From NCBI RefSeq assembly GCF_044704955.1, contig NC_091995.1, positions 49,910,001-49,974,000 on the forward strand: a stretch of 64,000 nt of DNA. Direction: 5' to 3'. Both the position numbers and the translations under genes were made by a program. A model generated the notes under the pieces. The model did not search any database. It was not told the origin of the DNA and worked only from the letters and a program-made list of their open reading frames with translations. The first letter of the stretch is position 1; each line of letters starts with the position of its first letter. Shown piece after piece: positions 1,065 through 43,907 of the stretch. The DNA comes from Pristiophorus japonicus. Lineage: Eukaryota.

Positions 1065-1999
1065 CTAATTTGGTGACAATCGTCATTCTCTCCCGTGGAA
1101 AGTGCAGTCTCTCCAAATGCATCACCCGTTACCTGGTGGCCATGGCAGCGGCTGATCTAATGGTCCTGATATTTGAAGTAATTCTGTATGAGATTCATGA
1201 TGCTTATTTCCCATATTCATTCCTGAACTATACTCCGATTTGTAGTCTTAACATTGTCCTATATTATTCGTTCATTGATTGCTCTGTCTGGCTAACGGTG
1301 GCTTTCACATTTGATTGTTGTGTCGCTATTTGTTACCAAACGTTGCGAACAAAATATTGTACCGAAAAAACTGCGGCTGTGGTGATAGCAGTGGTGTGTT
1401 TCTTAAGCTTTTTAGAAAATGTTCCCATGTACTTTGCATTTGTACCTCGGGAAATAATTGACAATGTACCATGGTGCTGCTTTGTAAAATCAAGCTTCTA
1501 TACCTCACCCATATGGGTAGCATTTTTGTGGTTGGAAACCATTTTAGCCCCATTTGCACCATTTGTGTTGATCGTGCTGCTCAATGCCCTGACCATCAGA
1601 CACATTGTACTGGCCAATAGGGTGAGGAGGGGTCTCCGAGCAAACAACAATGGTGGGAATCATAAGGATCCAGAGATGGAGAACCGAAGGAAATCCATCA
1701 TTTTACTGCTCGCTATATCTGGCAGTTTTATACTATTATGGACGGTAAATTTCATCGTTATCATATTTGTGCAATTTACAGATACGCAATTTACGGAAAC
1801 AAATTACAACAACTCTTTCACCATTGCAGAAATATCCGGGAATATGCTGAGGTCTTTTAGTGCTTGCACAAACACGTTTATTTACGCAGTATCTCAGAGC
1901 AAATTCAGAGAAGAATTAAAGAATGTGATTATGTGGCCCAAGGCTATCATTACGTATTTAATCAAATTGGTTAAATGTCTTCACAGAACTGAAGTGTAA
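1065..1999 (+). CDS. Exon 2 (bulk of the coding sequence) of a class A orphan GPCR, shark GPR139/GPR142-like family; exon 1 lies upstream of the window
   Basis: Polypyrimidine tract + AG at 1063-1064, then CT AAT TTG GTG = (A)NLVTIVILSRGKC, a phase-1 start matching the phase-1 donor of paralogous exon 1 at 40407-40476. Open frame to TAA 1999 with TM2 LVAMAAADL, TM3 CSVWLTVAFTFD, TM5 PF, TM6 SFILLW, TM7 NTFIY and helix 8 SKFREELK. Confidence 0.9.
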
Positions 2000-2429
2000 C
2001 TACACCCATCGGAAGAGAACAGCTTCTGCACATAATAATCTCCAAAGGAACTGGAAGCTGCCATCTGTTCCCCATATTAGATGTCATATTGTAGGAGATC
2101 AAAGATTCTTGTGGTATTATAAACTTTTTCCGAGAATGTAATACAGCCGCTGTCGGGTTGGAACAAACACATAAGAATTTTTGAGATCCGAAATAAAATC
2201 CATTGGGCAGATATATATGTTGCTTTTAACTGATCTAAATCGAACACCGGTTTCCTTACCTGATTCCTCAATCCCTTCTCCCAACATAACAGAGGTAATT
2301 ATCTGTTGAAGCAGCCAGTTGTTCCCATCAATGGATTAATTTTGTGAATGATCTCCAGGGCGTTTGAATCTTTTAGAAATCAGGATTTTCCTGACCTATC
2401 AATATGTTCCCAAGTTACCAATTTACAAC

Positions 2430-3415
2430 TTTTGATTACAATCTAAATTAATTATTTAGTCTTTGGAATGAAAAACACAATTTCTAAATTGGAAGACGAT
2501 GCCAAATTGTGGCGAGAGGATAGTCTCTACACAGGGGAAATGTAATGAATTGCAAGAGGACATTAATAAACTTGCAGCTTTGTCAAATAATTGACGAATC
2601 CATTTTAACATAAATAAATGTGAGGTATTACATTTTGGTAAGAAATATTAGGTGGTCACAGATTACTTGGAAAATAAGAATCAAATGGATTAGAGGAGAA
2701 ACGGGAAAATCAAATGGGTTTGCGGAGAAATCTGGATCTACAAATACACAAAGCACTCAAAGTTGTGACGCAGGTCAATAAGGCTATAACAAAAGCAAGC
2801 CAAACACCAGGGTTTATTTCGAGAGGGATAGTATTGGCAACTAGTTAGGTTATGCTAAACGTGTACTGAATCTTGGTTAGACTGCACTTGGAGTATTGTG
2901 CATAGTTTATAAAAAGGTCGTCATATTATAAAAAGGATATAGAGGAGGAGAGGGTAAAAAATATATCATAATTGCAGGTTAGATAGACAGGAAAGGGTCT
3001 TTTTTCTCTTTAAAACAAAAGCCTGAGGGGTTACCTAACAGAAGTTTTTGAAATTATGCCAGGTTTTGACAGTGTAGATGCACAAAGAGTGTTTCCACTT
3101 GTCAGGAAGTTTAAAATTATAGACTATTAATATAAATTATTCACCAAGAAATCAAATCCGGACTTCAGAAAAAACGTCGTTACCCAGAGAGTGGTGATAA
3201 TTTGGAACTCACTATCACAGGGAGCTATGGAGGCGAATAGTACAGATGCATTAAAGGGAACGCTAGATAAGCTTATGAGGGAGAAATGTGTAGAGGGTTA
3301 TGCTGATGGGCTTAGATGAGGAAGGAGAGCTGGCTCAAGTCGAGCATTAATGCCAACATGAACTAGTTGGGCTGAATGGCCTATTTCTGTGCTCAGTATT
3401 TGATGTAATTCTATA
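2430..3415 (+). mobile_element. Old, degenerate 5'-truncated CR1 LINE
   Basis: Decayed RT C-terminal motifs (aaatgtgaggtattacattttgg; cacttggagtattgtgca; acccagagagtggtga) and a 3' UTR gggctgaatggcctatttctgtgct with a tctat tail. Confidence 0.8.
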
Positions 3416-9602: not shown

Positions 9603-10333
9603 GGAATGACCTCAGCCTCAGGATTCTGTACCTTTACTTTAGGAGTGCAGATTTCTAAATATTTCATTTTAAACTGTGATCACTGTAATATTCTTGACTT
9701 TTTTTTGAAGGTGAAATGTCCTGCTCACTAACCATGGGTGGAAATATGGCTCGGCTTAATCTATTTGTTCAAATGACTTCAACTGTTAAGAATTGTGCAA
9801 TTCTCTTTTATCACTTGAGCTTTCTCTCAGGTCTTAATTGGACGTCATTTGATAAGCAGAATATCTGTGTGTCCATAAAACTGAAAGAGAGCATCGCTTC
9901 TCCCCCAAAATAGGATAGCCGATAATAATCATGCAGGGAGAAAGCATACACTGATGTATTATTCTAAGAATTGGTGTTCAGAATAATCCGCTTAGGTTCA
10001 GTTAATATTCACCTTTAGCAATATTTCACTGCATCACTGCTCCTGCTGTCGGTGTAATAATCTTATCTCTTTGATTTGCAGACCTCTTTGATGTGCAGAC
10101 AATAATTACCGCCAACAAATAAATAACAATTAAGAAAATTCAAAGTTTCCAACATATTCCTCATGTAATAACCGGATGGACAGCACAATTTGTTCTGAAG
10201 TTTTAAATTAAGCAGGTTAGAGGGGATTTCGTCGCATTTGTAGATAGCTTTGTAATTTTCTTTCAGAGCCAAGTATTTGTATCGCAGCTTGGTTCTGGTT
10301 GGTTAATATTATTGCGAATATTCAGAGATGATC

Positions 10334-11690
10334 CGAGTCTGAGAACGGTAGAGTTCGAGAGTGGGTGGTCCGAGGGTGCGGAGAGTCCGAGAGTTTGGCA
10401 GAGTCCGAGAGTTCGGGAGAGTCGGAGAGCTCAGCGGCAGAGTCCGAGAGATCGGGAGAGTCGGAGAGTTCATGTGAGTCCAGGAGAGTTGGAGAGCTTG
10501 GGTGAGTCTGAGTGTTCGGGAGAGTCGAGAGTTTGGGAGAGTCCGAGAGCTCGGCGGCAGAGTCCAAGAGATCGGGAGAGTCGGAGAGTTCATGTGAGTC
10601 CGGGAGAGTTGGAGAGCTCGGGTGAGTCTGAGTGTTCGGGAGAGTCGGACACTTCGGGAGAGCGGTAGAGTCCAATAGTTCGGGAGAGTGGGGGAGTCTG
10701 AGAGTTTGGGAGAGTGGGAGATTCCGAGAGAGCGGGAGAGTCCAAGAGTTCGGGAGAGTGGGAGAGTCCAAGAGTTTGGGGAGAGTCCGAGAGAGCGGGA
10801 GAGTCCAGGAGAGCGGGAGAGTCCGAGAGTTTGGGGAGAGTCCGAGAGTTCAGGAGAGCCTGAAAGTTTGGGGGGAGACCGAGAACGGGAGCGTACAAGA
10901 GTTCGGGGAGAGTCCAAGAGTTCGATTCCGAGAGCAGGAGATCGGAGAGTTCGGGGAGAGTCTGAAAGTTCGGGGAGAGTGGGAGAGTCCAAGAGGTTGG
11001 GGAGAGTCCAAGAGGTTGGGGAGAGTCCAAGAGTTTGGAGGAGTCCGAGAGCGGGAGAGTTCGGGGAGAATCCGAGATGCCGGGGAGCGTCCGAGAGTCT
11101 GAGAGAGTCCGAGAGTTCGGGGGTCTTTGAGAGTTCGGGGGAGTCCGAAAGCGGGAGAGTCCGAGAGCGAGAGAGTCCAAGAGTTCGGGGAGAGTCCGAG
11201 AGTTCGGGGAGAGTCCGAGAGTTCAGGGAGAGTCCGAGAAATTGAGAGTTCTGGGAGAGTCCGAGAGTGGGAGAGGCTGAGAGAGTCCGAGAGTTCAGGG
11301 GAGTCAGAGAGCCGGAGAGTCCGAGAGAATCCAAGAGTTCAGGGGGAGTCCGAGAGCGGGAGAGTCCATCAGCTCGGGAGAATCTGAGAGTTCGGGAGAG
11401 TTTGTGAGTTCGGAAGACTTTGTGTAGTTCGGGAGAGTGGGAGAGTCAGTGAGTTCGAGTCCAGAGCGGGAGAGTCCGAGTACAAAGTGGGAGAGTCCTA
11501 GAGCTGGAGAGTCCGAGAGTTCGGGAGGTCCGTGAGCTCGGGCGACTTTGAGTTCAGAAGAGTGAGAGTGGGAGAGTCCGTGAGTTCGAGTACAGAGTGG
11601 GAGAGTCCGAGAGCTGGAGAATCCGAGAGTTCGGGGAGAGTCCGAGAGTTCAGGGAGAGTCCGTGAGTTCGAGTCCGAGAGCGGGAGAAT
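10334..11690 (+). repeat. Purine-rich tandem repeat (9-10/19-20 bp units, e.g. GAGAGTTCGG-GAGAGTCC) with a 120-bp higher-order duplication
   Basis: Directly visible. The sequence at 10441-10500 recurs almost identically at 10561-10620. Confidence 0.95.
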
Positions 11691-13180
11691 CTGATAGCAC
11701 GTTTCAGGAGGTGGTCACCCCGCAGCTTAAAAGTGTGCAGGCAGAGGGGAAGTGGGTGAACACCAGATGAAGTAAAAATGCCAGGCAGGTAGTGCAGGAG
11801 TCCCCTCATGAATCCATCTTGCTTTCAAACCAATATTCGCTTCTGAGCATCGGTGAAGGCGATGGTGCCTCTGGGGAGTGCAGCCAGAGCCAGTTCCGGG
11901 GGGGGGTGCGGCGGAGCGACGAAGAATAAAAGGGCTCCAATGATAGGGGATTCTATAGTTAGGGGAACAAAGATGCGTGTCTGCGGCCGCAGACATGACT
12001 GCAAAATAATATGGTGCCTCCGTGGCACCAGGGTCGAGGATGTCACAGAATGGACGCAGGGCATTCTGGGGGGAGAGGGTAAACAGCTAGAGGTCGTGGT
12101 CCATATTGGGACCAATGACATAGGTAGAAGTAGAGACGAGGTTCTACAGGCAGAAGTTAGGGAGTTAGGAAGAAAATTAAAGGATAGAACCTCAAAGGTA
12201 GTACTCTCCGGGTTACTATCTGTGCCACGTGCTAATCAGTACAAGAATAGAAGGACCGAGAGGATGAACATGTGGCTGGAGAGTTGGTGTAGGAGGGAGG
12301 GCTTTAAATTCTTGAGGCATTGGGACCGCTTCTGGTGGAGATGGGATCTGTACTAACCAGACGGATTGCACCTCAACAGCAGTGGGACCAATATCCTCAC
12401 AGGGAGTTTTGCTCGTGCTGCTGGGGAGAGTTTAAACTAGCTTGGCAGGTGGATGGGAACCTGAGAACATATTCAATAGGGAAGGAAGTAAAGCAGAGAT
12501 TGGATAGCAAGAATTTAGAAAGTGAATCTGTAAGTCAGAGGAAACAAGGGTTAGTAAGTAGTAATCAAGGAGGTCTTCCTGTGTTAAATGGTATCAACAT
12601 TAATGTAAGTGGCATAGCAAATAAGGCGGATAAGCTAAGAGCACAGGTAGATACTTGGGAGTATGACATTATAGCCATTACAGAGACAGGGCTGAAAGAG
12701 GGGCAGGTTTGGCACATCAATATCCCTGGTTATAAGATATTTAGACAAGACAGAGAGGTCTAAAGGGGTGGGGGGTCACGGTATTGATTAAATAAACTAT
12801 TACAGTGGTGAGGAGGGATAATATGTTAGAGGGATCATCAAATCAGACCATTTGCGTCAAATTGAAAAATAAAAGAGGGCGATCACACAGCTGTGCATGT
12901 ATTATAGACCCCCAAATAGTGGCAGGGAAACAGAGGAGCAATAATTTAGGCAAATTGGTGTGAAGTCCAAAAATCATAGGGTAGTAATAGTCGGAGATTT
13001 TAATTATCCTAATATTGATTGAAACAAATATAATGTGAAGGGTATAGAGAAAGCAGAATTCTTAAAATGCATTCAAGAGAAATGTATTAGTCAGTATGTA
13101 ACAAACCCCACACGAGAGAGGGCGGTTTTGGTTTTAGTTTTGGGGAATGAAGCTGCGCAGGTAGAATGGGTATTAGTGGG

Positions 13181-13741
13181 TGTTTTGGATCAATAATAAT
13201 AGACCCAGGTTCGGGATCTGGATGAATGTTAAATAATAGACAAGACAAATGAAGTAAAGAATAAGATACAGTTTACTGAGAGAAAAGAAACATTAATAAT
13301 ACAATTTACGAAGAAAAGAGAAGTATGATAAGATGCAACAATGCTCACGGCCTTCCGCCCATCGGGAACTTCACAAGTGACGGCTGGTCTGGAGCATTGG
13401 GGGTCCCGGCACCGCTCGCGAATCATGGTCCAAGGTGAAGTTCAAAGAGCTGCGGGACAGTACTGTACCTTTATTCTATCAAATAAACACACTATTGAAC
13501 AAAACATGGGTGCATGTGGCTTATGGCCAACTCCTAATCTGTAAGGCCCCAGGTGCTTGTCCACAAAGCATGAGACCTCAAGCCGCGGACTGTCTCCTAA
13601 CAAGCTGGTGTGCGTCCCAAGGTCACTTCCCTCTCTCTCTCTCGAAATAGCAACAACATTCTACGGGGCATGGGAGCAGAGACACCCTATGAATGGCTAA
13701 ATATCATAATTAACAATATGTGATTAACCCCATACAATACA
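13181..13741 (-). repeat. 3' LTR of the provirus
   Basis: Direct repeat of 19004-19563. Polypurine tract AAGGGTGGAT (minus strand, 13742-13751) abuts it. Confidence 0.95.
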
Positions 13742-13765
13742 ATCCACCCTTGATATTTAGACATT

Positions 13766-14088
13766 CTAAGTAATATAATCAAGTTGAAGGCGTAATGCAT
13801 CAATTACACGTTGAGTATGCGCAAGCAACGCCCGCAATCTACACCTAAGAATACATACAAGCAGTAATATCGCGACGAGTAAAACAACGATCAGTGTTAG
13901 CTTTTAGAAATTGAGCTTAGCGAGCTAGGTCTACAGTGGGAGGAAGGTTAGTAATTGTCTTGCGTACGATCAGTGTTAACTAACCGCCACCCTATATGGC
14001 CGTCCCATGCTGTGTTTGAGGATGGAAGTAGCATAGCCACAGATAACGAGACACAGAGACTGGCCAGCACAAGCTGGTAAGTCGCCAT
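13766..14088 (-). pseudogene. env: env relic: signal peptide plus transmembrane anchor/cytoplasmic tail, ectodomain absent
   Basis: Minus-strand acceptor tgtgcttcctcccacAG (14103) just after the pol stop, then aaaATGG at 14088 giving MATYQLVLASLCVSLSVAMLL. In another frame LTLIVVLLVAILLLVCILRCRLRALL...DYIT* ends just before the PPT. Confidence 0.65.
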
Positions 14089-14130
14089 TTTGGGCAGAAT
14101 TCCTGTGGGAGGAAGCACAGGTATGTTAAT

Positions 14131-17100
14131 TCAGCCCCGTTTAGTCAATTTACCCTTGTCAACACAGAGAGGAATATCTTGACCAGTCAGGAGCATCCAA
14201 TAAGTGTTTCCTTCTCCTTTTGCTAAGATTTTCCCTGCTTGTAAGGGTTTCTGGGGGTATTGCACCCACACTTTTCCTCCTTCACAAACTGTGTCCTGAG
14301 TCCGATTTCCTTTTTCAAAAGTAGGGATACTAACTTTGCCTAACATGTGGCTTATGGGGGTTCCCCCCCGCAATGGTCGGTGATTCAGATTGCGCACTGC
14401 TTGTAGTAAGACCTTTAACCACCCTTGCAATGTGTTAGTGGGAATTAATATTTTAATCTGTTGCTTAAGTAGTCCATTCATGCGTTCTATCAACCCTGCA
14501 GCTTGTGGATAGTAAGGTATGTGAAACCTCCAATAGATCCCGTTGTCTACCACCCATTGTTGCACTGTTTGACCTGTGGAGTGCGACCCATTATTGGACT
14601 GTACTTCTGCTGGCTCACCGTAATATGTGATTAAATTCTCCAGTCCTTTAATCGTACTTTGTTGACTCGCTTTAGTCACTGGGTAAGCTATCAAAAGTCC
14701 AGAATAGGTATCAACAGCAGTGAGCAAATATTGGAACCAGTGTTGCAATGGTAAAGGTCCTACATAATCAACTTGCCATATTTGTCCTGGTTGAATCCCT
14801 CTCTTAGGGCCCAAGTTTTGGGCCGCGCCTAGAACGGTGCAGCCCAGACCTGGACGCCCGTTTTTTGTGCCACAAAGTGCGCCTAAAAAAAAACTCACCT
14901 CTTCTCCGGCTCCCTGCAGGTCCTCTGGAGCTGGGCGCAGCGCAGCATGAGCTGTTGGGGACGGAGCCAGGTCCCGGCGCTGAAAACAGTGCCGAGACCT
15001 CTGCACATGCGCGTTACAGTCGGCATGCATGTGCAGTAGCTTCAGGCGCCCACAACTGTGGGAGGGGCCCGAAGCACACAGCCCCTAGCCCTGGCCGAAT
15101 GGCCTCACTGGGGCTGCGTGGATAAGGCTCACCTCCCACGTCCAGCTCCCTCCCGACCAGACCCGACTTGACTCCCGCCCCCCCGGACCCGACCCGACCT
15201 GACCTACTATCTCCCCCCACCAACCTCTGCTCCCTGCACCCCCCCCACCCCCCGGTGACCCGACCTCCGCTCCCCCCACCGGCGACCCGACCTCTGCTCC
15301 CCACCCCACCCCCCGGCGACCCGACCTCCCCCCCCCCCCCCGGACCGGACCGGACCCGACCCCCGCTCCCCCAGACCCGACACCCGCTCCCCCCCCCCGC
15401 CGGCAACCCAACCTCCGCTTCCCCCCCCCAGCTACCCGACCTCCGCTCCCCCCCCCACCCCAACCTCTGCGACTCTTTCCCCCCCCGATCTCCGCGACTC
15501 ACCTCCGCGACTCTTTCCCCCCCCTGCCCCCCCAACCTCCGCGACTCCTCCCCACCCCCACCGCGACCTCCGCGACTCCCCCACCCCCGACCTCCGCGAC
15601 TCCCCCCCTGGACCCGGGACCCGACACCCGACGCCACCTACCTGTAAATCCAGCCCGAAGTCTTGGGCCCGGCCCGTTCAGCCTCCTTCTCCCTCCCTGC
15701 CTCCTACCCCCCACTCTTCTCCTCCTCCTCCTCCCCATCTCCTCCTTCTTCTCCTCCCCATCTCCTCCTTCTCCCCCCACTCTCCTCCTTCTTCTCCCTC
15801 CCTCCCCTCTCCTCCCCCTCTACCTCCCTCCTCCCCCCTCTACCTCCCTCCTCCCCCACCCCCCTCCCCTCGCTGTCAGAAACATAGACACTGACAGACA
15901 GAGAGTGAGAGACACACAGACAGGCAGAGAGATAGAGACACTGACAGCGACACACTGGGGAGGCCGTCCCAGCACACTGTTGGAGAGCTCCCAGTGCTGC
16001 AGTCGGTAAGTAGAAAATGTTTTATTTATTGATTTTTTAATTAAAAATTGTTTTATTAATTTTTTTTTGATTGATTTTTTGGTTGATTTATTGATGAATT
16101 TATCATTTATTATTGATGATGGCTCTTTATTTGTAAAACTGAAGTGTTTAATGTTTGTAAACTTCCCTTTAAACCGCGCCCCCCCCATTCCCTACGCCTG
16201 ATTTGTAACCTATGCCTGATTTTCTAAAGTGTAGGCAAGGTTTTTCTGAGCGTACAAAAATCTTCACTTACTCCATTCTAAGTTAGTTTAGAGTAAGTTT
16301 TCACTGCCTAAACTTTCAAAACGAGTGTAAGTGGCCGGACACGCCCCCTTTTGAAAAAAGAAATCTGTTCCAAACTGACCAGAACTGGAGCAAACTAAAT
16401 GCCGAGAATTCAAATTTCTAAGATACTCCATTCTGGACCAGTTGCTCCAAAAAAACAGGAGCAACTCAGGCCGAAACTTAGCCCCATAATATGGTCATTG
16501 TAGGGGAAAATGCTTCACCTTTTGACAAATTTCAGAGGTGTTTATGATCTGTTTTGAAATGTAACCCCCTATTTCGTGCCCATTGTATCATACCTCGAAT
16601 GCCCAAATGTCCAGATTTGTGGTGGGCCCATTTGCCTAAGCCATATTCTTCCTCTTCTGCCTCTTTGACAGCCCATGCCCGGATTATATTATCAACGGTG
16701 TTATTATATTCAGAGGTCTTTGAAGTGTTTTTCATGTGAGCGTTCACATGATATACAGTTATTTTCATCTTCTGGGCTTTGGACCATATTTGTTCCCATA
16801 GTTGCTTTCCCCACAAGTCTTTCCCAGTTATTTGCCAGTTATGTTTATGCCAGTTTCACATCCAGCTCGCCATGCCATTGGCTACCGCCCATGAGTCAGT
16901 ATATATGTGTACTTGTTGCTGTTCCTTTTCTAACGCAAGGACGACAGCTGCTAGTTCTGCTAGCTGGCTGAAGCCTCCCATGCCCTCATCATGCACAATG
17001 GTCTGGGTTTTTGGATGGAAGGCAGCAGCTCGCCATCGCTGAAGGCCATTTTGCCAGACCGCTGAGCCATCTGTGAACCAGGCATGGCTACGCTCTTCAG

Positions 17101-17533
17101 GTGTTAACTGTTCAAAAGACATGCCCCAGGAGATTGGTGACTCCTGGGTTAAACTGACAGATGACTGTGTAAGTTCACTCTCAGCTGTTTGTGGGTATTC
17201 AGCCACATGCTCATGTAGTTGGGTGATTCCTTCTATTCCTTTACTTGCTATGTCTACGATATTCCATCTCCAGCGCACTATGGAGCTTTGCTGCACTCGC
17301 CCAACCTTGTGTGTCTCATTGACCAGGCCGATTACCGCATACCACTCCGCACCTTCTTCAGACAGCCGCTGTGTTATAGTTACTACATCTGGGACAGCGG
17401 TTGCCAGGGGAGGGGCAAATTTGTTCAGTTTTCGATAGTCCACAGTCATCCTCCAACTTTCGTCGGGTTTCTGCACAGGCCAAGCAGGACTATTGTAGGG
17501 GGACACCGCATGTCTAATGATACCCGCCCCCAA
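14131..17533 (-). pseudogene. pol: pol remnant: RT N-terminus, connection/RNase H, integrase (interrupted by a Harbinger-like element)
   Basis: RT stops at WYAVI and joins directly to the connection domain, so no YxDD. RNase H motifs present. Integrase WAHHKSGHLG at ~16600-16630, core at 14131-14806 with the second Asp altered (VQSNNGSH). Confidence 0.88.
14807..16485. mobile_element. Non-autonomous PIF/Harbinger-like DNA transposon with internal C-rich minisatellite, inserted in the ERV integrase
   Basis: Imperfect TIRs GGGCCCAAGTTT / AAACTTAGCCCC with flanks TTA (14804-14806) and ATA (16486-16488). Excision restores the integrase reading HIKRGIQPGQIWQVDY. cccgacc-type repeats at 15150-15870. 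Confidence 0.8.
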
Positions 17534-17790
17534 GAGCCCTTGTATGGTTTTCTGTATAAGGTCTGAAGACTTCCCACATACAGGACAACACTACGAAGGG
17601 TTAAAAAAACCTTCACTCTGTTTGAAAAAGTGGTTGGAGCTAAAACAAACAGGCAGCTCCACTATTTTTCCAAACAGGCTTTCAGACACGTGAAAAATTC
17701 ATTCTGCAGTCAAAACATGACAAAAGCGCTTTCATTCACAGACAGACATTCACAAAGTCTTTCTTCATTCAACAAAGCTTATTATGTTTA

Positions 17791-17809
17791 CTCCCCTGCC
17801 AGGTAAGTA
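17791..17809 (-). ncRNA. U1 snRNA 5'-end fragment (19 nt exact, not a functional gene) embedded in the provirus
   Basis: Minus strand TACTTACCTGGCAGGGGAG equals nt 2-20 of vertebrate U1, followed by weak further similarity (TAAACATAAT vs ATACCATGAT). Confidence 0.6.
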
Positions 17810-18900
17810 ATCGGAATGTATGGCCTCAGATCCCCAGGAGATTAGGTTGATGTGGTTCTAACTGGGAGTGCTCCCGGATCCCGGGCACACCCCGAGTCGA
17901 GGGGATCTTCTACATCCTCGAACATGTCCTAACAATAGGCAGGCGTGCCCCACCTGCTGCCCTTGGGCTGGTCCCAATAATGCGAGTAGTGCACCCTCAT
18001 CATAGGAGGGCCACTCTTCATCAGGCTGCTCCACATTCCTGTCGTAAAGAGCTCCTGATCTGGCCCACCAAATTGTTGGTGATATATTCCTCCCTGTGTT
18101 GCCATGTTGTGCAACTGTATTGCACCCTCCGCCACAGTATTCCAAGGTTTTACCTCCCCTTCCCAATCAACGGCAGAGGGATATTTTTGCCAGAGCCCGA
18201 TAGTAACCAATTCTTGTAACTCACTAGTGGTGAAGTCATACATCCCTCTAGTGGTTACCGGCTGTTCCCCATCTTGCTGTTTCGTCTTATTTGTCATAAG
18301 GGGTCTAGCTTCTGTGCTTGGAGCGTATGGGGGAGGGTCTTTAGTTTCCTTCCGTTCCCCCCCCCCTCCATTTTTTCCAGCTTGTATACATTCCCCACAT
18401 GACTTTGCATGGGCTTTTAAATACTCACTGGGATCGGATTGAGCAAGCCCATACCACATTCAGCAGCAAATACAAAATATATATTTCAAATCCAGCTGTA
18501 ATTTCCGTCGTCTAGCTTTCTTTTTATTTTGTACTGTCGGCAGACGGCATATTAAAGTTTCTGATCGTTCATTGACCTTGTCCGCCAGCTCTTGTGCAGT
18601 GCAGACCACTTCAGTCAGGGTCAAGTTTTGACTTTCCAAAACCTTAACAGCTGTTTTTAACTGTAGGTTTTCTTCCTCACTTTCCTTCAGTTGTTTACAC
18701 ATCGCCCTTAGGGTATCAACAAAATCCATCCCATTTGTGGGGGACTATTTTTCTCCTGTGGGAAGCCTGCTTCCTCCAGGAGAGACAGTACCGCGTGGGG
18801 TATAGTTCTATCTTTGTTCTGTTCCAATAACGGCGTATCCCCATGTTGCGGGAGTCCAAATCAGGCTAGCACCTTGGCAAGAGAGCCAAAACCCTCATCC
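17810..18900 (-). pseudogene. gag: gag remnant (coiled-coil N-terminus, PPPY late-domain motif, capsid fragment)
   Basis: Lies immediately 3' of the PBS. Fragments LKESEEENLQLKTAVKVLE, DPPPYAPS, YDFTTSELQEL and WNTVAEGAIQLHNMA; frameshifted. Confidence 0.75.
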
Positions 18901-18982
18901 CTCGTGCTCCACCCTGGTATTCTATACTTCACCCCAGTAGGAGGAGACTACTTCTTGTCTTTTCTCTTAAACATTTTACCAG

Positions 18983-19000
18983 ATCCTGTTTGTCACGCCA
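18983..19000 (-). promoter_or_regulatory. Primer-binding site, tRNA-Ser(CGA)-like
   Basis: TGGCGTGACAAACAGGAT lies 3 nt after the 5' LTR, a 16/18 match to the complement of the vertebrate tRNA-Ser(CGA) 3' end (ATCCTGTTCGTGACGCCA, from memory). Confidence 0.75.
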
Positions 19001-19003
19001 AAA

Positions 19004-19563
19004 TGTTTTGGATCAATAATAATAGATCCAGGTTCGGGATCTGGATGGATGTTAAATAAGAGACAAGACAAATGAAGTAAAGAATAAGATACCATTTACT
19101 GAGAGAAAAGAAACATTAATAATACAGTTTACGAAGAAAAGGGAAGTATGATAAGATGCAACAATGCTCACGGCCTTCCGCCCATCGGGAATTCCACAAG
19201 CGACGGCTGGTCTGGAGCATTGGGGGTCCCGGCACCGCTCACAAATCATCCAAGGTGAAGTTCAAAGAGCTACGGGACAGTGCTGTACCTTTATACTATC
19301 AAATTAACATACTATTGAACAAAACATGGGAGCATGTGGCTTATGGCCAACTCCTAATCTGTAAGGCCCCAGGTGCTTGTCCACAAAGCATGAGACCTCG
19401 AGCCGCGGACTGTCTCATAACAAGCTGGTGTGCATCCCAAGGTCGCTTCCCTCTCTCTCTCTCTCGAAATAGCAACAACATTCTACGGGGCATGGGAACG
19501 GAGACACCCTATGAATGACTAAATATCAGAATTAACCCTATGTGATTAACCTCATACAATACA
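19004..19563 (-). repeat. 5' LTR of the provirus
   Basis: Direct repeat of 13181-13741, adjacent to the PBS. Confidence 0.95.
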
Positions 19564-21674
19564 GTGGGAGAGCACTTGAGTGCCAGTGACCATAATTCAG
19601 TCAGATTCAAGTTAGTTATGGATAAGGATAAGTATAGGCCTGGAATAAAATCCCAAGTTGGGGAAAAGCTACTTTGGTAAGTTGAGGAGTGATTTGGTTA
19701 TGGTGGACTGGAAACAGCTACTTTTAGGTAAATCAGTGTTAGAACATTGGGAGGGAGGCATTCAAGGAGGAGATCCAGAAGGCTCAGGCCAAACATGAAC
19801 CCTTAAAGATAAAGCATGGGAATAACAATTCTTGAGCCCCCTGGATGTCTAGTGACTTACAAGGGAGGATAACATAAAAAAAGGGAAGCTTATGTCACAT
19901 ACCGACTGCTAAATACTATAGAATCTTTGGAGGAATATAGAAAGTTAAGAGGTAACATTAAAAAGGATATTAGGAATGCTAACAGAGCATGAGAAATTCT
20001 TGCCTAGTAAAATGAAGTGGAACCCAAAGATGTTCTATAAATATATTAATAGCAAGAGGATAACTAAAGAAAGGTTAGTGCCTATTAGAGACCATGAGTG
20101 TAATCTTTGTGTAGAGGCAAAAGATGTTGGTATCGTTCTCAAAGAACACTTTGCATCTGTTTTAACAAAGAAAAGGGGGTAACCAAGACGGCCGATGTGG
20201 GTAGTGTGTATGATGTACTGTATATGGACTTTAAAAAAACTGGTCATGAAGGTTAAAGCCCATGGGATCCAGAACAATGTGGCTAGTTGGATCCAAAATT
20301 GGCTTAGAGATAGGAAGCTACGTGTAATGGTTGATGGATGTGTTCGTGACTGGAAAGATGTTTCCAGTGCGGTTCCGCAGGGCTCAGTACTGGATCCCTT
20401 GCATTTTGTGGTATATATCAATGATTTAGATTTGAATATAGGGAGTATGATTAAGAAATTTGCAGATGATACTAAAATTGGCTGTGTGGTTGATAATGAA
20501 GAGGAAAGTCATGGATTGCAAGAGAGTGAGCAGAGCAGTGGCAAATGGAATTTAATTCAGCAAAGTATGATGTCATGCACTTTGGGAGGGCTAATAAGGA
20601 AATAAGGAAAGGCTATACATATTAAGCGGTAGGCCACTTCATACTGTAGATTAACAACGGGTTCTTGGAGTGCTTGTCCACAGATCCCTGAAAGTAGCAG
20701 GCCAAGTGGATAAGGTGGTTAAGAAGGCATACAGAATGCTTGCCTTTATTGGCCGAGGCATCGAATACAAGATCAGAGAAGTTATGCTCAAATTGTATAA
20801 CACTCTGATTAGGCCACAGCTGGATTACAATATGTAGTTCTGGTCACCATATTATAATAAGGATGTGATTGTACTAGAGAGGGTGCAGAGGAGATTTACT
20901 AGGATGCTGCCTGCAATGGAAAATCTTAGCTATCAGGACAGATTGGATAGGCTGGGTTTGTTCTCATTGGAACAGAGGATGTTGAAAGGAGACCGCATTG
21001 AGGTGTTCAAAAGTTTTGAGGGCCCTGGATATAGTGGATTGCAAGGGCCTATTTCCATTATGAAGGGGCATAGTTTTAAGAAGGTTGGTGGAAGGTTCAG
21101 AGTAGATTTGAGGGGGACTTCTTCACACCGAGGGTTGTACGTTTCTGGAATTCACAGCCTGGAAGGGTGATGGATGCAGCAACACGCACCACATTTAAAA
21201 CGTGCTTCGATGGGCATTTAAAGTGTTGCAATCTGCAGAGTTATGGACCTCGAGCTGGTAATTGTGGGTCAGCTGCATAACCTCTTGTTCGCTGGCGCAG
21301 ATATGATGCTAAGTACTGCTGGGAATCGAATGCGGTCAGGGTGATCTCCTGGACTCGTTTGGATCGACTGAATGGGTCAGAGAGGAATTTTCCCAGATTT
21401 TTTCCCCACTTGGCCTGGGTTTTTATCTTTTTTTCCTCTCTCAGGAGATCGCATGGCTCTGGTTGGGGTAGAGTGTAGAATGTTTCAGTGTAAGGGATAT
21501 CAGAGTTGTGTGAGGCGGACTGGTTGGCTGGGTGCTCTTTACCTTTCCACCATTGTTCATTTTTCAAAGCTTTATATGTAACCTTCAGGGCTGCTGACCG
21601 AGGGCCGTGCGGCTCTTTGTCGGCCGTGTGGACACAATGGGCCCCAATGGCCTCCTTCTATGCTCTAAATTTCT

Positions 21675-21760: not shown

Positions 21761-21767
21761 AAACAAC

Positions 21768-25945: not shown

Positions 25946-28549
25946 ATGGTTGGTTATTATAATTTAGTAAATACAGGGTAATTTGAAGAATATGATTAAC
26001 CGACCCATGGCTCAAATAACGGATTCACCGAATTTAAAAAAAAAGCACAATGAGAATTTTAACTTTAGAAAATAGTGCAAAAGACGCCTTATGGAATTAC
26101 ACGTCCATTATGCTCCTCACTCTATTTTCCCTTCCATTGACTTCAATGCAAAGAGCAATCAGGCGAGATGCACAAAGTGAGCGAATTCGGTATCGTTCAT
26201 TTTACACAATCGCCCAAAGTTAAAATTAATCAATTCCATCCCTCAACTATAAGAGATGTACTTCAATAGAAATGATATGTGCACACAGGAATCTCCCGTC
26301 GAATTGCTCACACTCAGTGGAAGCATCTGCCCGGAGCTTCGTTTTTCCGAGTTCGCCAGTCTGGTTTCGTCTTCAATTAAAATTAATACATGGGGAAGAG
26401 AAGCGGGGAGCGCTCACACTGAAGACCCCGGCAGTACTATTTGGAACTACAAATGGGGTATTCTCAGTAAGAAGCAATTCAATACTGTCACGGCCCCTGA
26501 TTTAAGATAAGTGAGTAAGTTATTTTCTATTACATGACAGGCTTCCCCTGCTATTCAGATCCCCAGGGGAATGGGTGAGCTTAGACACTGGCCAATGATG
26601 GCAGCGTTCTGACGTTCAGTAATGATGGGACACGATATTTAGGTACAGTGAATCGGATCTCGGGTCCAGGATTAAATGACAGCAGTTGTGCAGTAGGTGT
26701 GCTGAGATTCTGAAGCACAAAGTACTTGGCCGCGGGTTCTGCAGCGTTGCAACAGCGGGTCTGAGGTGAATTAACACTGAGTGATGCGAGGTGGGGGGTT
26801 CGGTTTAGGCCGCACTGGGAATTGGGTATTGCGAGAATCAGCCCCTGGTGAAGCCTTTCCTTTGGCAGCACCGCAGAGGCAGAACATACACTCTGGTGGT
26901 AATCGGGACTGGAATGTGATTTCTGGCGGGGGGAGGAGGTGGAAGTGTCTGAGCCCATGGGTGGGAGTGGGAGGATCCCAGGATCTGGCAGCACTTCGGT
27001 TGTTGGCCATGGTGTGAAATGAATTGTCTCGGAAATCTCTCTGTAGATTCTGAAGTCAGCGATTATCATTGCTTCTTTGAAAATGCCGAGTTTTTATGAT
27101 GTTAACAACAAATAACTGCTTAAACAGACAAATATTGGATAAATACATCATCGCTCAACGTCTCATTTTATTTCAAAGATTCAATTGAAAACATTTATTA
27201 ACATTAAAGAACTGTACAGACAATCGTCATGTAAAAATGATAAACTGAACAATGTAAGGGACTGCTTTAAACAGGGAATTTTCCCTGAGCCAGATTATAT
27301 ATTTTTTACCAAATAAGACAAGGTGAAAATATCTTCATGATCAATTAACTTCAGAAATGTTTTTGCATTGATTTTGTTTCAACTAATGTGAAATAAATTA
27401 ATGAATTATACACAGGGTAAAATACACTTCAATAGATTTAGAATAGACTCACCAGGCTGGAAATTGACGGGTTGATCGACCGCGTGTTTCCTGCCCCACC
27501 TGAGTATAATGGAGTATAATGGGGCGGCCTGTCCCACCCCGTCACTTCACCACTGGGCATGTTGTGTTAGAATTAATTAAATATTAAAATATCAAATTTG
27601 AATGGGAACAAAGGCACAGTTGGTGCAATCATTTCATTGGGCGTTCGTAATTATTTTATCATTCCTACTATGATGCGAGAATATGGGAATAAAATGCCAC
27701 AGCTGATGACACATGGGCTTATCCCGAAGAGCTAAGTTAACATTGCTGCCAGTGTAAAATGGACGGTAATGAATTGCCATCTCATTAGGCGTCACAGCTG
27801 ATTTATATTCCATCCACATCAATGAAATTCAAAGAAGGAGCTCCCTGCTGTTGCTCCTGCCTGGAAGGCCTTTGTGAGCCCTGTGAAACAGCCCAGGAAG
27901 AGGAGGAAGGGGCTTACTACAATTCCAATTCATCCAGAGGGAGAGGAGGAGAGCAGAAAATACAATGAAATTCAAAAGCGGGAGTCGTGTGTAATGGGCG
28001 ATAATTCGATATCCCCCATTTAACTCTGTCCCCAGAAGTTAAAATTACCCCAAGGTCTTAATTGGGTGAATTTCGCTTAGGTGGAATTGAAACACAGACA
28101 AAAGATAATTGGCTACCCGGTTTATATTCTGCCCCATTTCTTGTTCCTTGACTTCAATGAAAGCTAAAATCTGTGGGTATAAAAGGAGCAGCGGATCCTG
28201 TTTCCGCCCGTAAATGGTCATTCAAACAATTGGCCATTTGTTGTAGGTTTAAATCTCCATTTCATTTATCGCTTATCTCCGATAATTACCAGAGTATCTG
28301 TTTGAAGAGTAAGCAGTGTAACCTGACTAAGAACAGATTGGGTTTATTTAGCTCGATTGGTGGCCTGAAAGACATCCGGAAGCAAAAATGTTTCACCTGC
28401 CTCCTAGCTCAAGATCAGAAGTAATTCCTCAACAGGAGTTATTTCCTGTGAACGTAATTTCAGCTGTTCAGCAAGAAAAAGCTTCGATAATTTTGTAACA
28501 AATACCTTTAAACTGCCAAACAGTACTAGCAGACCATTATTATGAGTTA

Positions 28550-29031
28550 GGTGGTACTGCCATGCAAAATCAATCTTCTATAGCTTTCTAACTTGGGGAG
28601 CATTTTTGTTGTTGGACACCATTTTTTCCCTGTTGGTTCCATTAATTTTGATTTTATTGCTCAATGTTCTGACCATTAGACTAGCTGTACTAGGCAATAG
28701 AATGAGAAGGAGTCTCCATGGGAACAACAATGGTGAGAATCACATTGATACAGAGATGGAGAACCAAAGAAAATCTATCATTTTACTTCTGTTCACCTCT
28801 TGTAGCTTTATACTTTTATGGAGGGACATTATCCTATATTATATAATTGTGCAATTTATATTAAGAGAACAATTATTGTGTTCCTCTCACCATTATGGAA
28901 AAAAATGGATAGTACAAGTCGAATTACAGTTCTTCCACGGACAGGTTTGTTTATCAGTGTCCCAGTGGAAATTCAGAGATGCATTGAAGAATATGATTAA
29001 TTACCCTTGGTTGCAACTTTCAGCCAATTAA
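28550..29031 (+). pseudogene. Diverged GPR139-like GPCR fragment (ECL2 to C-terminus)
   Basis: WYCHAKSIFYS..LILLLNVLTIR..NRMRRSLHGNNNGENHIDTEMENQRKSIILLL..SFILLW..KFRDALKNMI. TM7 is scrambled by indels. Confidence 0.88.
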
Positions 29032-29689
29032 ATAGGTAATGACTTCATAGAATTAAATAAATTATATCCATCCAAGCTGAACATAGGTGCTGCAGTATAA
29101 ATAGTGTGTACACGTTCAAAGCTCATGTGCCATGGAAAAGCTCTGTTCCAAGCTTGCTTCATGCACAAAGCAGTACAGGAACTACCGAGACTGGGCTCTT
29201 TTTTTCATACCAAAATGTCATTATCCCATCCTTAAATGGGAATCCTTTAATGTATAATTGTACCATTTTGGTTGCTTAACAGCAATACCTATCATTCCAT
29301 TTTGCTTTTTTAAACAAATGATGCCCAGGCTTGGTGGTTTTACAACAGAGACAGAAATGTGCGCAGCTTTATTTGAAAGTATTTCTCATGGCTCCCGTCT
29401 CGAGCACTCTGTCTTGGAAGCTGAGATAGGGAACTGAATTGGTTATTACCACAACTTTGATACGTCAATATTTGCTCCACCTTCTCAAAAGACTGTGATC
29501 TTTGATGCTATTCGTCTGATATCTGCCGAAAACCAGTAAATCTAGCATTAAAAACCTGAGGCAGTCAGCTTAAGTCCAGAAAATACAAAGCATTCAATAA
29601 AGAATGTTGTCTTTATATTCAATATTCCAACTAAGCAAAATACTGATTGTAAATATTCAAGCTTAATTATTTCAGAAAATAGAGGTAAG

Positions 29690-37162: not shown

Positions 37163-37295
37163 TAATATTTGGGAAGTTTGGACTGCACTGCTGTTGAATA
37201 TGAACCCCTAGGACAAGAGGTCTCTGTAACGTTTCGGTTGGGCATTAAGACAAGCACAATATGGCTTGGTCTAACCTACCTTCACAGCGCCCATG

Positions 37296-39145: not shown

Positions 39146-40293
39146 CACTTCAGACGTTCTCCTAGTGATACTAAGCACCCATCGAAAAGAATACACTGCA
39201 AATGTAGAAATTAGAGCAGCATAACACCTTTCCTGCGCTCCACAGCGAGTGATAATTCATCAGGTCTATAATTCCAAGTTCCTCGCACCAGGCTTTACAT
39301 GTACTGAACCGACTGTCCAGCGAAAGATGATTCAGGGCAGGATGCAACTTCCAAGAGGTCTCTGTAGCTTGCTGCAGTAATATTGGGGCCTCCCTCCATT
39401 CATTGCTATCGATATGTGTAAGGACAGCTCACTCATTTCTGTGAGCTACACGGACAGCAATAAACCATCCACATGTTCTGCTAATGCATTTAACTCTCCA
39501 CCTTTAACACTCGCAGTTTCCAGCCACAAGCGGAACACCGGCGCCAGCATTTGTATGTGGCACTATGCAACACTTGTGACCATGAATCGCCAGCCCATTT
39601 CACACTCGGCTCCATTTTAAAAATAAAATCAGGTGGCGTATAAATTGCGTTGCTGAATTGCTAGCACGTGTACTGACTGCCCTACTGCTCAAGAAGTATT
39701 TCACCCCAGTCAGTGTAATAGACTTGTCTTCAGATCATGGGCATTATGTCCGCGAGCAGCGCTCCTGATAATTCAGGCACGTGGCAACAGTATTCCATAC
39801 ATTAATTTCAATGGAGATAAAATCAGGCATACGTCATGCACAATGTTACACTAGGCATTCCCAACACACAGCTCTACTCCTTAATTCTGACGGAGAAATG
39901 TTGGTAAAATTATTTCCATGTTACCTTATGGTGCTTAAACACGGTGCAGTAAATTGGATGAAGAACAAAAGAGAAATACTTAGGTAAAACGAAGATAGTG
40001 ATAATCTAGCATCAATACACATTTTTCATCAAATTATTCAGTACATCATTGAAAATGTGAGACATGTTTTGCTTGTGAGTCCTGTCCAAGAAGAATCCTC
40101 ACCAGTACTGCACAAGACACTTCCTGGAGTACTTTACCTTCTAAATAAATCAGTGTCAATTTCCAGACTTCAAAATCTTGCAATGCTGCTGTAACCTATG
40201 AATATAAAAAGTCCCCCCCCCCCACTCTGGTGATTAGAGGAGGGGCAACTGCCTAATCTGTTTGTTCAATGACTGTGACTAATGTCAGTAATA

Positions 40294-40335
40294 GGGTAAT
40301 CTGATTACCCCGTGGGCTCTCAGTCAGGTATAAAA
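40294..40335 (+). promoter_or_regulatory. Putative GPCR core promoter: palindromic P3 homeodomain site plus TATA box
   Basis: GGGTAATCTGATTACCC (40294-40310) and TATAAAA (40329-40335), 72 nt before the ATG at 40407. Confidence 0.6.
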
Positions 40336-40406
40336 CAGTGGTTAGTGTGAAGTCATTTCATCTACTTCTTAATTAGACGAGCCAGCAAGATCACCGCTTC
40401 TCGAAA

Positions 40407-40476
40407 ATGCGACGGCCAATAATTGTGCAGATAGAAGCAATTTTCTACCCGATTCTTGCAGCGATTGGTGTTCCTG
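40407..40476 (+). CDS. Exon 1 of a GPR139-like GPCR (MRRPIIVQIEAIFYPILAAIGVP)
   Basis: aaaATG, 23 codons + 1 nt, then a canonical G|GTAAGT donor. It encodes the first half of TM1 and is phase-compatible with the acceptor at 1064/1065 of the paralog. Confidence 0.85.
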
Positions 40477-42104
40477 GTAAGTCATTCTGATCAATTGTTA
40501 TTCCCCTTACTGATGGTTAACAGTATCCAAGCTCTTGCTGTCCAGCAACATTGGGGTAGATCTTGACTTTGTGCTATGCTGTAAAGTGGGTGATAGGGAA
40601 TGAGCCATCTGCTTTACATCTCTCCTGGAGTTTATTTCCACTGACTTCAATTAAATAAATAATCGGGGGAGATGCAAATCACGCTGCCGATTCGCTATCA
40701 CCGTTTGACATCATCGCACTAAGTCATAATCTGCCAATCTCTATTTCTGTTCCGATGTTTTCACGCAGTTAGTTATAGCTATCGTCCCAGTAAAGTCAAT
40801 GGAATAGGGAATCGGACGAGGTGTATAATGGGAGGTGATTTGGAAATCCCTCAGGTTACAACATTGATCGAAGTTAATATTACACCCTGTCTAATTTGAG
40901 TTTCCATTGGGTGGATTTCTGCTTTTAGTTATGAACGAAAATCAGTAAGTAGATTATTGGCTGCGGATGTTACAACTCGCTCGACCTTTGCTTACGTTGA
41001 ATTCATTGAAAATGAAAGTCCAGTGCCGTGTAAAACACGCGGCTGATTGACACAAGCCGGTTTCTGCCGGGCAGCAAAAGTGAAAATTCACCCCCAGTGA
41101 AGTTCATGGGAGCACAATAGGTGGAGGTGCAAAACTGGTTGGTTCAGTTTCCCACTCGGCAGATTAAGTTAACATTAGCCCAGAGCCTCATCTACAAAAT
41201 GAGGAAGGAGATGCTCGTTCGTGACCTGTGGCACTATCCGTGTATGGAACAATCCCGATACAACAGTAAGCCCCCAACACTGGGTGCCCATGAGGCACTG
41301 TGGTCACAGTTCCAGTGAAAGTGTTTACCACCAATGTCTCACTCCTCCAATATCATCCAGCCAGGAGACCAATCCGGGTTTAATGCTGAGTGTTGAAAAA
41401 TGTGCGTCATGTACGCCATTAATAGCTAATGAGAGACTCATTTGTTTACTTTGTTGCTGGGACGTGGGTGACGCTGACAAGGCTACATTTATTACCCAGC
41501 CTGAGTTTCCAGGAAAAGCGCCTATTGAGTAGCATGCTGGAAGTGGTTCCAATGAAGATTATGTCAAATTTGGGCATTAGCGACAAAATGGACAATATCC
41601 AATTGAGCACCCATTGTGTGCCCGCTGGATTCCCCTTCCATTGACTCCAGTGGATGGACAATGGGAAGCGGTGTATGAAGGGTGGATAACTTCATATCAG
41701 CAATTTTACATAATGGGCCAATGGTAAAATGAACCCCAATGTGCTTCTTAATGCGAGCAGACAGACTATTACACTGTGAATCCTCACATCATTAGATTAC
41801 AGAGCAGTATCAATCAGATTATTTGTAATAAAGGAAACTAATCCATGACAATGCGATAGAGTAAATACTCGTGAAGTCAGTGAAATGAAATATCGTCCAG
41901 TTGGATAACGGACCACGGATCCGCTTTCGCCTGTTTCACACTATCGCCACTGTTAACATTATCCCCCAATGTGTGTTCTCTGAATCGGTGGGGACGATCT
42001 TTCTTTGCAACTTTGTGGATATAAACTGATGCAATCTGGAGACAATCACTTCATGCCACAGCACTTTGTTGTTTCCTTGAAATAATTCCCAGAATAAATT
42101 CGAC

Positions 42105-43907
42105 ATTTTGTGACAATCACTCGCTATCTGATCACCATGGAAATCGCGGATCTTTTGGTCATGATATTTGACGTGATACTGTATGCGACCAACGATATTT
42201 ATTTCCCATATTCATCCTGAACTATACTTCCGTCTGCAGAATCAATCTCTCTTTGATTTATTGTGTCATTGATTGCTCAGTCTAGTTCATAGTGACTTTC
42301 AGTTTTGATCGCTTTGTAGCCATTTGTTGCTGGAATTTGAGAACTAAATATTGTACCGAAAGAACCGCAGCTATCGTTATACTGACAGTTTGTTGGTTGA
42401 GCTTTTTAGAAAATGCTCCAATGTATTTTAAATATGAACCCTCGGAAATAATTGACAATGCCTGGTGGTTCTGTACTGTTCAGTCCAGCATCCATACCTC
42501 TCCTGCCTGGATGGCCCATCTCTGGTTGGACAGCATTTTAACACCATTAACCCCATATCGCCAAGTTTGTAGATGACACTAAGCTGGATGGCAGTGAGCT
42601 GTGAGGAAGACGCTAAGAGGCTGCAGGGTGACTTGGACAGATTAGGTGAGTGGGCAAACGCATGGCAGATGCAGTATAATGTGGATAATTCTGAGGTTAT
42701 CTACTTTGGTGGCAAAAACACGAAGGCAGAATATTATCTGAAAGGCGGCAGATTTGGAAAAGAGGAGGTGCAACGAGACCTGGGTGTCATGGTACATCAG
42801 TCATTGAAAGATGGCATGCAGGTACAGCAGGCGGTGAAGAAGGCAAATGGTATGTTGGCCTTCATAGCTAGGTGATTTGAGTATAGGAGCAGGAAGGTCT
42901 TACTGCAGTTGTACATGGCCTTGGCGAGGCCTCACCAGGAATATTGTGTGCAGTTGTGGTCTCCTAATCTGAGGAAGGACATTTTTGCTATTGAGGGAGT
43001 GCAGCAAAGGTTCACCAGATTGATTCCAGGGATGGCAGGACTGACGTATGAGGAGAGACTGGATCAACTGGGCCTGTATTCACTGGAGTTTAGAAGGATG
43101 AGAGGGGATCTCATAGAAACATATAAAATTCTGACTGGACTGGACAAGTTAGATGCAGGAAGAATGTTCCCGATGTTGGGGAAGTCCAGAACCAGGGAAT
43201 ATAGTCTAAGGATAAGGGGTAAGCCATTTATGATTCAGATGGGGAGAAACCTCTTCACTTAGAGAGTTGCTAACCTGTGGAATTTTCTATCACAGAGAGC
43301 TGTTGATGCCAGTTTATTGGATATGTTCAAGAGGGTGTTGGATATGGTCCTTGCGGCTAAAGGGATAAGGGGTATGGAGAGAAAGCAGGAAAGGGGAACT
43401 GAGGTGAATGATCAGCCATGACCTTATTGAATGGAGGTGCAGGCTCGAAGGGTCGAATGGCCTACTCCTGCACCTATTTTCTATGTTTCCATTTGCTACA
43501 TTTGTTTTGATTTTCCTCCTCACCACTTTGACCATCAGACATATTATAGAAGCTAATCCTTTCCGCAGGAGAATGCAAGGCAGCAATGGTGAGAATCACA
43601 AATATCTCGAGCTGAGGAATCGAAGGAAGTCGATCATCTTCCTGCTTGCCATATCTGGTAATTTTGTATTGCTGTGAATGTTGGCACTTATATATTACAT
43701 TTGAATACAAATGACAGATTCGGATTTTTTTCGGGCAGATTACACCGACCCTTTCACCATCATGGATAAAATGGGCTATCTGCTTCAGCGGCTCAGTTCC
43801 TGCACCGACATCTTTATTTGGCAGTGGCCCAGACTAAATACAGAGAGGAGTTAATGAACACGGTTAAAAGTCTCTTCACTCTAATTATTAATTCAATGAA
43901 ACATTGA
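42105..43907 (+). pseudogene. Exon 2 of a disabled GPR139-like GPCR
   Basis: Aligns to 1065-1999 (TFSFDRFVAICC..KYCTERTAA..NRRKSII). Lesions: no AG at the expected acceptor, a 42-nt deletion, a frameshift near 42215, TAG at 42283, a CR1 insertion in TM5 and TGA at 43675. Confidence 0.92.
42549..43488 (+). mobile_element. 5'-truncated CR1 LINE inserted in GPCR TM5
   Basis: RT C-terminus and ttctatgttt tail. Candidate TSD CCATT at 42544-42548 and 43489-43493. Confidence 0.9.

Follow-up and report, generated by a model that had tools for sequence, protein, structure and literature searches.

Among the G-protein-coupled receptors (GPCRs) of vertebrates, GPR139 and GPR142 are class A orphans that respond to L-Trp and L-Phe. 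GPR139 has a tryptophan/phenylalanine site consisting of F3x33, H5x43, W6x48 and N7x38 (PMC5430874). Relatives of GPR139 have been tied to the MIP and proctolin receptors (PMC12208981), and low-copy relatives of GPR139/142 in fishes and coelacanth have been named GPR210A/B (PMC6504862). In the available text of the GPR210 survey the word 'shark' is absent and no expansion is described (PMC6504862), and 'shark' was likewise not found in the accessible part of a 2025 review of GPR139 (PMC12208981). Cartilaginous fishes have been reported to carry very few odorant receptor (OR), trace amine-associated receptor (TAAR) and V1R genes (PMC10116579), and the whale-shark paper describes a relative paucity of GPCRs in this group (PMC8455134). 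Here, we analyzed a window of 64,000 nucleotides from the genome of Pristiophorus japonicus (G000), contig NC_091995.1 (C19), positions 49,910,001-49,974,000. By tblastn and nhmmer, six traces of one class A receptor family were found in this window, all on the plus strand, one of them open and five pseudogenes (Table 1). Judging from its sequences, the family is on balance probably a chemosensory repertoire, in which many copies with different predicted ligands would act through one signalling face. No paper describing the expansion was found in a search that went without subscription journals and some supplements.

The family extends far beyond the window. From 3,922 first-look candidates, 127 matches were scored and all passed E 1e-10; 103 of these 127 best matches lie on contig C19 between 36.4 and 57.4 Mb, on both strands, and other query sequences retrieve other subfamilies on many contigs. 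For detailed comparison 153 loci were collected, of which 143 were parsed, 119 were intact and 113 were distinct, a set biased toward top-scoring matches. A 22-base motif of transmembrane helix 7 (TM7), present in 82 of the 113 intact copies, has 1,014 matches genome-wide versus 1 for the reversed control, so the expanded family proposed in a first-pass annotation of this DNA is borne out. When 40 motif matches were sampled evenly from the first 100 listed, all on contigs C3-C9, an open frame from TM1 to TM7 was present in 30, and 26 also fit the DRY pattern. The motif count taken with this open fraction suggests several hundred to about a thousand open family genes in this genome. Four copies on different unplaced scaffolds (L035, L036, L038, L039) differ by only 2-3 bases over 3.9 kb, and such near-identical copies may be very recent duplications or assembly redundancy that possibly inflates the gene number. 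Very recent amplification is also seen in one young subfamily, with a median nucleotide identity of 95%. All 15 copies of another, mainly C23 lineage are broken by internal stops, many with matching open-segment lengths, and this lineage likely amplified after dying.

Of 3,500 candidates drawn from protein databases, 2,029 pass E 0.001, and the named rows among the best 120 matches are all from sharks and rays, mostly auto-named 'probable GPR139'. A chimaera protein (P0135) is placed inside the family, which thus has members in sharks, rays and a chimaera. Because L002 and P0001 do not differ in any of the columns retained, rows labelled Pristiophorus were not counted as independent of the genome. 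Two database models (P0041, P0086) start with a peptide derived from a long interspersed nuclear element (LINE) and are named after unrelated proteins (chemokine, capa receptor); such models make the family harder to recognise. Eight assembly proteins (P0051, P0054, P0088, P0091, P0100, P0104, P0185, P0181) start in the intron or in exon 2, without the peptide of exon 1, and thus cannot serve as evidence of splicing. In the supplement files covered, no match to the family was found for PMC8455134 (12 of 24 files), PMC12421772 (12 of 44) and PMC10529500 (one short file).

The first-pass annotation had described the family as GPR139/142-like, but it is not an expansion of GPR139/142. In this genome, GPR139 (L033, C15) and a GPR142-like gene (L221, C16; 57% identical to GPR139 and given the GPR142 name by similarity) each occupy one locus of their own. 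In a maximum-likelihood tree of 57 rows, from which GPR142 itself and OR, TAAR and V1R sequences were left out, the 37 chondrichthyan rows form one clade (97/91), whose sister (100/100) is an amphibian and sturgeon receptor; the next branches are L094 and L095, with bony-vertebrate partners, and two amphioxus proteins, and GPR139 lies outside. A single clade of the family with GPR139 was rejected (approximately unbiased test, p=0.0128), which together with the separate single loci rules out an expansion of GPR139 itself. PF00001 is the only Pfam-A match at E 0.01, no OR, TAAR, V1R or V2R profile matches, and the nearest relatives are GPR139-like orphans; the best sequence match among solved structures is GPR139/GPR142 (PDB 7vug, 9m42; E 6e-8). 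A parallel with the nematode srw receptors was considered and not used, with no PF10324 match and no supporting paper. Like GPR139 and GPR142, the family starts exon 2 at the same ANxxT site in TM1, has N5.58 and W6.48 and lacks W4.50 and P7.50; unlike them, it has C3.25, lacks P6.50 and mostly replaces H5.42, R6.51 and N7.39. In the C19 subfamily of the window, an aromatic residue at 3.33 is kept in 55 of 59 genes and W6.48 in 59 of 59, with His at 5.42 in 4 of 59 and Asn at 7.39 in 1 of 59. Since the tryptophan/phenylalanine site does not survive as a whole, it gives no indication of amino-acid ligands, and their assignment by homology was rejected.

The sister receptor of amphibians and sturgeon (P0224, P0279, P0281, P0295) is also auto-named 'probable GPR139', and it resembles the shark family in length and in a motif of intracellular loop 3 (ICL3) and TM6. 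Clustered at 90%, it is represented once in each species, across 20 amphibian rows and one sturgeon. No one-to-one match of the amphibian receptor was found in the Pristiophorus genome, where its best matches reach 34%, and from the sequences we infer a one-to-many orthology between this receptor and the shark family. The rows P0224 and P0276-P0295 are conserved amphibian and sturgeon receptors that are mislabelled 'probable GPR139'. Two single-locus receptors in this genome, L094 (G000:C17:83.59 Mb) and L095 (G000:C7:215.37 Mb), have coelacanth, teleost and frog partners and are low-copy relatives of the kind named GPR210A/B; they possibly belong to the 'GPR210' sets.

Within the shark family, a fixed core carries a variable pocket, the latter taken as 33 standard class A positions and numbered from motif anchors. 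Across the 113 distinct intact copies, N1.50, D2.50, C3.25, D3.49, R3.50, P5.50, W6.48, N7.49 and Y7.53 are nearly invariant, and the absence of W4.50, P6.50 and P7.50 extends throughout the family. The pocket is the most variable class of positions, with 1.89 bits versus 0.94 at other helix positions (p 1e-7). In 20 amphibian orthologues this order is reversed, with 0.07 bits in the pocket versus 0.54 at other helix positions. The amphibian gene retains F3.33, W6.48, N7.39 and a basic residue at 6.51, as in GPR139, whereas the shark family mostly replaces 5.42, 6.51 and 7.39. This contrast between a fixed and a variable pocket is new here, as are two results described below, namely the cassette as the unit of duplication and the loss of R3.50 in one copy.

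By our own codon model, the ratio of nonsynonymous to synonymous substitution (dN/dS, omega) in the window's subfamily (59 genes) is 0.45 overall, 0.58 in the pocket, 0.60 in the loops and 0.37 at other helix sites, and a set on C9 (11 genes) has an overall omega of 0.46. In the young subfamily (28 genes), omega reaches 3.09 on 81 pocket and loop codons (p 2.6e-8) and is 0.52 on the 206 others; it is 4.4 on the extracellular loops, and 19 of 23 high-omega sites lie in the pocket or loops. A tree-free pairwise estimate for the same genes gives 2.28 versus 0.44, with similar synonymous divergence. Helices and inner loops have an omega of 0.37-0.41 (p < 1e-11). Neutral evolution, which the first-pass annotation had named as a finding that would speak against it, is refuted by the purifying value of 0.45 and by the 3.09 of the young subfamily; its picture of a variable outer face over a conserved intracellular face also stands, with variable pocket and loop positions on a core under purifying selection.

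Diverged copies on several contigs have in common a promoter module within about 170 bases ahead of the ATG, made up of a TGTTTGTT-type element, an ACTAAT-type element and a pseudo-palindrome 20-25 bases before a TATA box. When 53 promoters were clustered into 19 promoter lineages, TATA-like elements were present in all 19, forkhead-like elements in 16, O/E-like elements in 15 and homeodomain-like elements in 11 (the last three compare with 1.6, 2.2 and 1.0 expected from shuffling, respectively). The exact O/E consensus occurs in L175 and L176 of the young subfamily. O/E, homeodomain and TATA sites have been reported as enriched in the odorant-receptor promoters of the mouse (PMC3247239). The relative L177, a thin control as the only one of three single-locus relatives with exon 1 found, has no TATA, no O/E-like site and one forkhead-like site. 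The conserved module suggests shared, cell-type-specific transcription of the copies. Downstream of it, the 70-nt exon 1 described in the first-pass annotation is general in the family (43 of 53 parsed long loci plus L096) except in one subfamily with 100 nt (3 loci). In the positively selected subfamily (L160, L175, L176), the 100-nt exon 1 is followed by an intron about 8 kb long; the O/E palindrome is perfect or nearly so, and the forkhead-like element is missing.

In the window itself, the positions at which receptor sequence had been noticed before (1065-1999, 10320/21675, ~25970, 22250, 28550 and 40407-43907) all proved to hold it, on the plus strand. The same-strand arrangement is true inside the window, but neighbours on contig C19 occupy both strands. 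Similarly, the common 70-nt exon 1 is intact inside the window only in pseudogene F; that of copy A sits 3 kb before the window, those of B and D (about 9909 and 24123) are decayed, and C and E have none. The conserved ICL3 motif is present in A, E and F but absent from the rest. The almost absent N-terminus of these two-exon genes was recovered, with about four residues ahead of TM1 in copy A.

Table 1. Receptor traces in the 64,000-nucleotide window (positions counted from its first letter), with the loci of the broken C23-type lineage
Feature	Position	Strand	Evidence or remark
Copy A, exon 2 (second half of TM1 to C-terminus)	1065..1999	+	Open reading frame; PF00001 E 3.5e-19; AlphaFold model of exon 2 pLDDT 93
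Copy A, position 3.50 codon TGT = Cys, no DRY arginine	1316..1318	+	Alignment of 113 distinct intact copies
Relic B, 5' part: remains of promoter and of exon 1 without ATG, joined across an old internal deletion to start of helix-8 coding tail	9634..10333	+	nhmmer
Inserted repeats splitting relic B: simple tandem repeat, minus-strand retrovirus-like element, LINE pieces	10334..21680	.	ATGATC at both junctions
Relic B, 3' part: helix-8 tail and 3' flank	21675..22181	+	nhmmer; remnant 21680-21769 E 7e-8
Pseudogene C: last quarter of exon 2 and 3' flank, frameshifted	22239..22922	+	tblastn/nhmmer E 8e-159
Relic D, 5' part: remains of promoter and of exon 1 (about 24123-24193)	23844..24481	+	78.5% identity to relic B
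Relic D, 3' part: helix-8 tail and flank	25967..26466	+	Remnant 25967-26032 E 5e-4
Pseudogene E: exon 2, 3' half, including the ICL3 motif; degenerate past TM6	28552..29083	+	E 3e-88
Pseudogene F, promoter module with forkhead-like, homeodomain-like, O/E-like and TATA elements, then an intact coding exon 1 of 70 nt	40258..40476	+	Exon 1 = 40407-40476, GT donor
Pseudogene F, exon 2	42116..43907	+	Segments 42116-42556 (E 2e-82), 43487-43903 (E 1e-58)
Broken C23-type lineage	L065-L067, L069, L075-L077, L079, L080, L082, L083, L087-L089, L091		Mostly G000:C23

Copy A is the open gene of the window. Its exon 1 lies at G000:C19:49,906,969-49,907,038, and with exon 2 it yields an open receptor of 334 amino acids with seven helices and helix 8 (PF00001 score 69.7 bits, E 3.5e-19). 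The AlphaFold model of exon 2 (pLDDT 93) is a confident seven-helix bundle with a hairpin in extracellular loop 2 (ECL2), and the best fold matches of this model are peptide-type class A receptors, at a TM-score of about 0.7, by which the ligand is not identified. The DRY motif of copy A reads D-C-C. Arg stands at 3.50 in 112 of the 113 distinct intact copies, with Cys only in copy A, and an Arg codon is found in 58 of the 59 copies of its C19 subfamily. Loss of R3.50 is expected, from general knowledge of class A receptors, to weaken G-protein coupling. Omega on the branch to copy A is 0.50 against a background of 0.45, so the R3.50C change is recent or tolerated, and copy A is likely weakened or newly dying through it.

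The relic at 10320/21675 noted in the first pass exists as a single dead gene, relic B, whose two parts now lie about 11.3 kb apart with repeats between them; at L231 this relic is unbroken, which identifies the repeats as inserted. These include a fragmented retrovirus-like element on the minus strand (10334-19500), with a long simple tandem repeat before it an integrase frame (PF00665, 14131-15084), an RNase H frame (PF00075, 16856-17590) and a frame with no Pfam match (17929-18459). The halves of relic D are held apart by a LINE (about 24545-25942). Pseudogene C is about 89-90% identical to the paralogs L021, L023, L024 and L026, and pseudogene F is 92% identical to the intact L123. In exon 2 of pseudogene F, the acceptor and the first 55 nt are gone, a 1-nt deletion lies near 42215 and a stop near 42284, and a LINE at about 42557-43486 interrupts the exon, with more stops beyond it. 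On the minus strand at 62972-63814, a stop-free frame of 280 codons with several cysteines, a terminal hydrophobic stretch and no Pfam match is perhaps part of a mobile-element membrane protein.

A plus B and C plus D are duplicates of one gene-plus-relic cassette, with 74-79% identity. The B/D relic lies downstream of 8 of 12 other C19 genes and pseudogene E is there too in 6 of the 12; E was co-duplicated with C and D at these other places on C19. Because relics B/D and E recur beside other genes, dead genes were copied together with live ones, and relic counts therefore overstate the number of gene deaths; counting each relic as an independent death was rejected. The tandem array with birth and death proposed in the first-pass annotation holds with respect to expansion and turnover, but it is not a simple array of genes. 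Multi-gene cassettes, dead genes included, were duplicated over about 21 Mb and many contigs.

The chemosensory reading, which would have the copies detect different ligands, is in agreement with a large clustered family, with birth and death of copies and with the diversified pocket. We hold more tentatively, at a little short of even confidence, a wider proposal, namely that cartilaginous fishes may have evolved their own chemoreceptor repertoire, of as many as roughly a thousand genes, starting from one orphan receptor related to GPR139, independently of other repertoires, and that this repertoire, hidden under the name 'probable GPR139', would supply the discrimination that their tiny OR, TAAR and V1R sets seem to lack. 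The ancestral single gene would have had one fixed, GPR139-like pocket, which duplication would have freed to vary. Under their shared promoter plan, all copies would be expressed in a single cell type, most likely a sensory cell of the nose or elsewhere, and would respond to small molecules or peptides whose source would be the water or other animals.

Several points weigh against this chemosensory interpretation. Diversifying selection is shown in one of three sets only: the window's subfamily has an omega of 0.58 in the pocket, with marginal support for values above 1 (2dL 7.6, one site), and the C9 set has 0.59 on pocket and loops. The motif names come from consensus sequences, two patterns were written once the alignment had been viewed and the promoters share ancestry, so what these comparisons establish is conservation and not which factors bind. 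O/E (EBF) and forkhead factors act in B cells too, and the C19 promoter element is also readable as an NKX2-type site. For a nasal role in particular, the catshark olfactory neurons are described as microvillous and dominated by V2R, with ORs not detected (PMC10116579), and no GPCR appears in the top 50 genes, as accessible, of a brain-plus-olfactory library (PMC11979771), in which sparse receptors would be diluted. Finally, strong selection on the outer loops fits a host-pathogen arms race equally well.

The last point leads to an unlikely but substantial alternative, in which the copies would be immune or host-pathogen receptors that sense microbial or damage peptides on leukocytes or barrier epithelia, in the style of formyl-peptide receptors, or whose outer face escapes a pathogen ligand. 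An omega of 4.4 on the extracellular loops of the young subfamily, its very recent amplification at a median identity of 95%, the peptide-receptor-like fold with an ECL2 hairpin predicted for copy A, and forkhead and O/E-type sites compatible with B cells are all consistent with it. Against this, the closest relatives are neural or endocrine orphans and not chemoattractant receptors, and among at least 46 'coupled receptor' matches in the accessible supplement of the bamboo-shark immune single-cell atlas there is no 'receptor 139' row, a weak negative (PMC11372145).

Rather less probable is internal signalling, whereby the copies would serve diversified endogenous peptides or metabolites in gut, gonad or brain and keep a job like that of GPR139/142. 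The GPR139-like residues of the amphibian sister receptor (F3.33, W6.48, N7.39 and basic 6.51) would suit this, as would the relation of GPR139 relatives to MIP and proctolin receptors (PMC12208981). However, an endogenous ligand should fix the pocket, as in the amphibians with their 0.07 bits, and in the shark family the pocket is the most variable class; the family also had no match in two supplement files on catshark pancreas, liver and brain, which weighs little (PMC4362833).

Mostly passive amplification, in which segmental duplications in a repeat-rich genome would carry the copies along as passengers and few of them would matter, accords with the co-duplicated relics (B/D at 8 of 12 loci, E at 6 of 12), the wholly broken C23 lineage and the scaffold copies that are perhaps assembly redundancy, but is very improbable in view of the omega of 0.37-0.41 on helices and inner loops, activation residues invariant in 112-113 of 113 intact copies, conserved promoters and members in sharks, rays and a chimaera.

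Regardless of the family's function, several hundred to about a thousand open receptor genes under selection alter the GPCR count of sharks. If the family is sensory, it bears directly on chemical discrimination by sharks; if it is immune, it would be an innate receptor system so far not known. The conserved amphibian sister gene, present in Xenopus, offers a laboratory handle on the ancestral ligand.

In comparison with the vertebrate OR, TAAR, V1R/ORA and V2R/OlfC repertoires, the shark family shows the same clustered birth and death, a compact coding region and a variable pocket on a fixed core, and its promoters carry O/E-like, homeodomain-like and TATA-like elements that may correspond to those of vertebrate chemoreceptor repertoires. 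Unlike OR, TAAR, V1R and V2R genes, it is of independent origin near GPR139/142, has two coding exons and matches PF00001 only.

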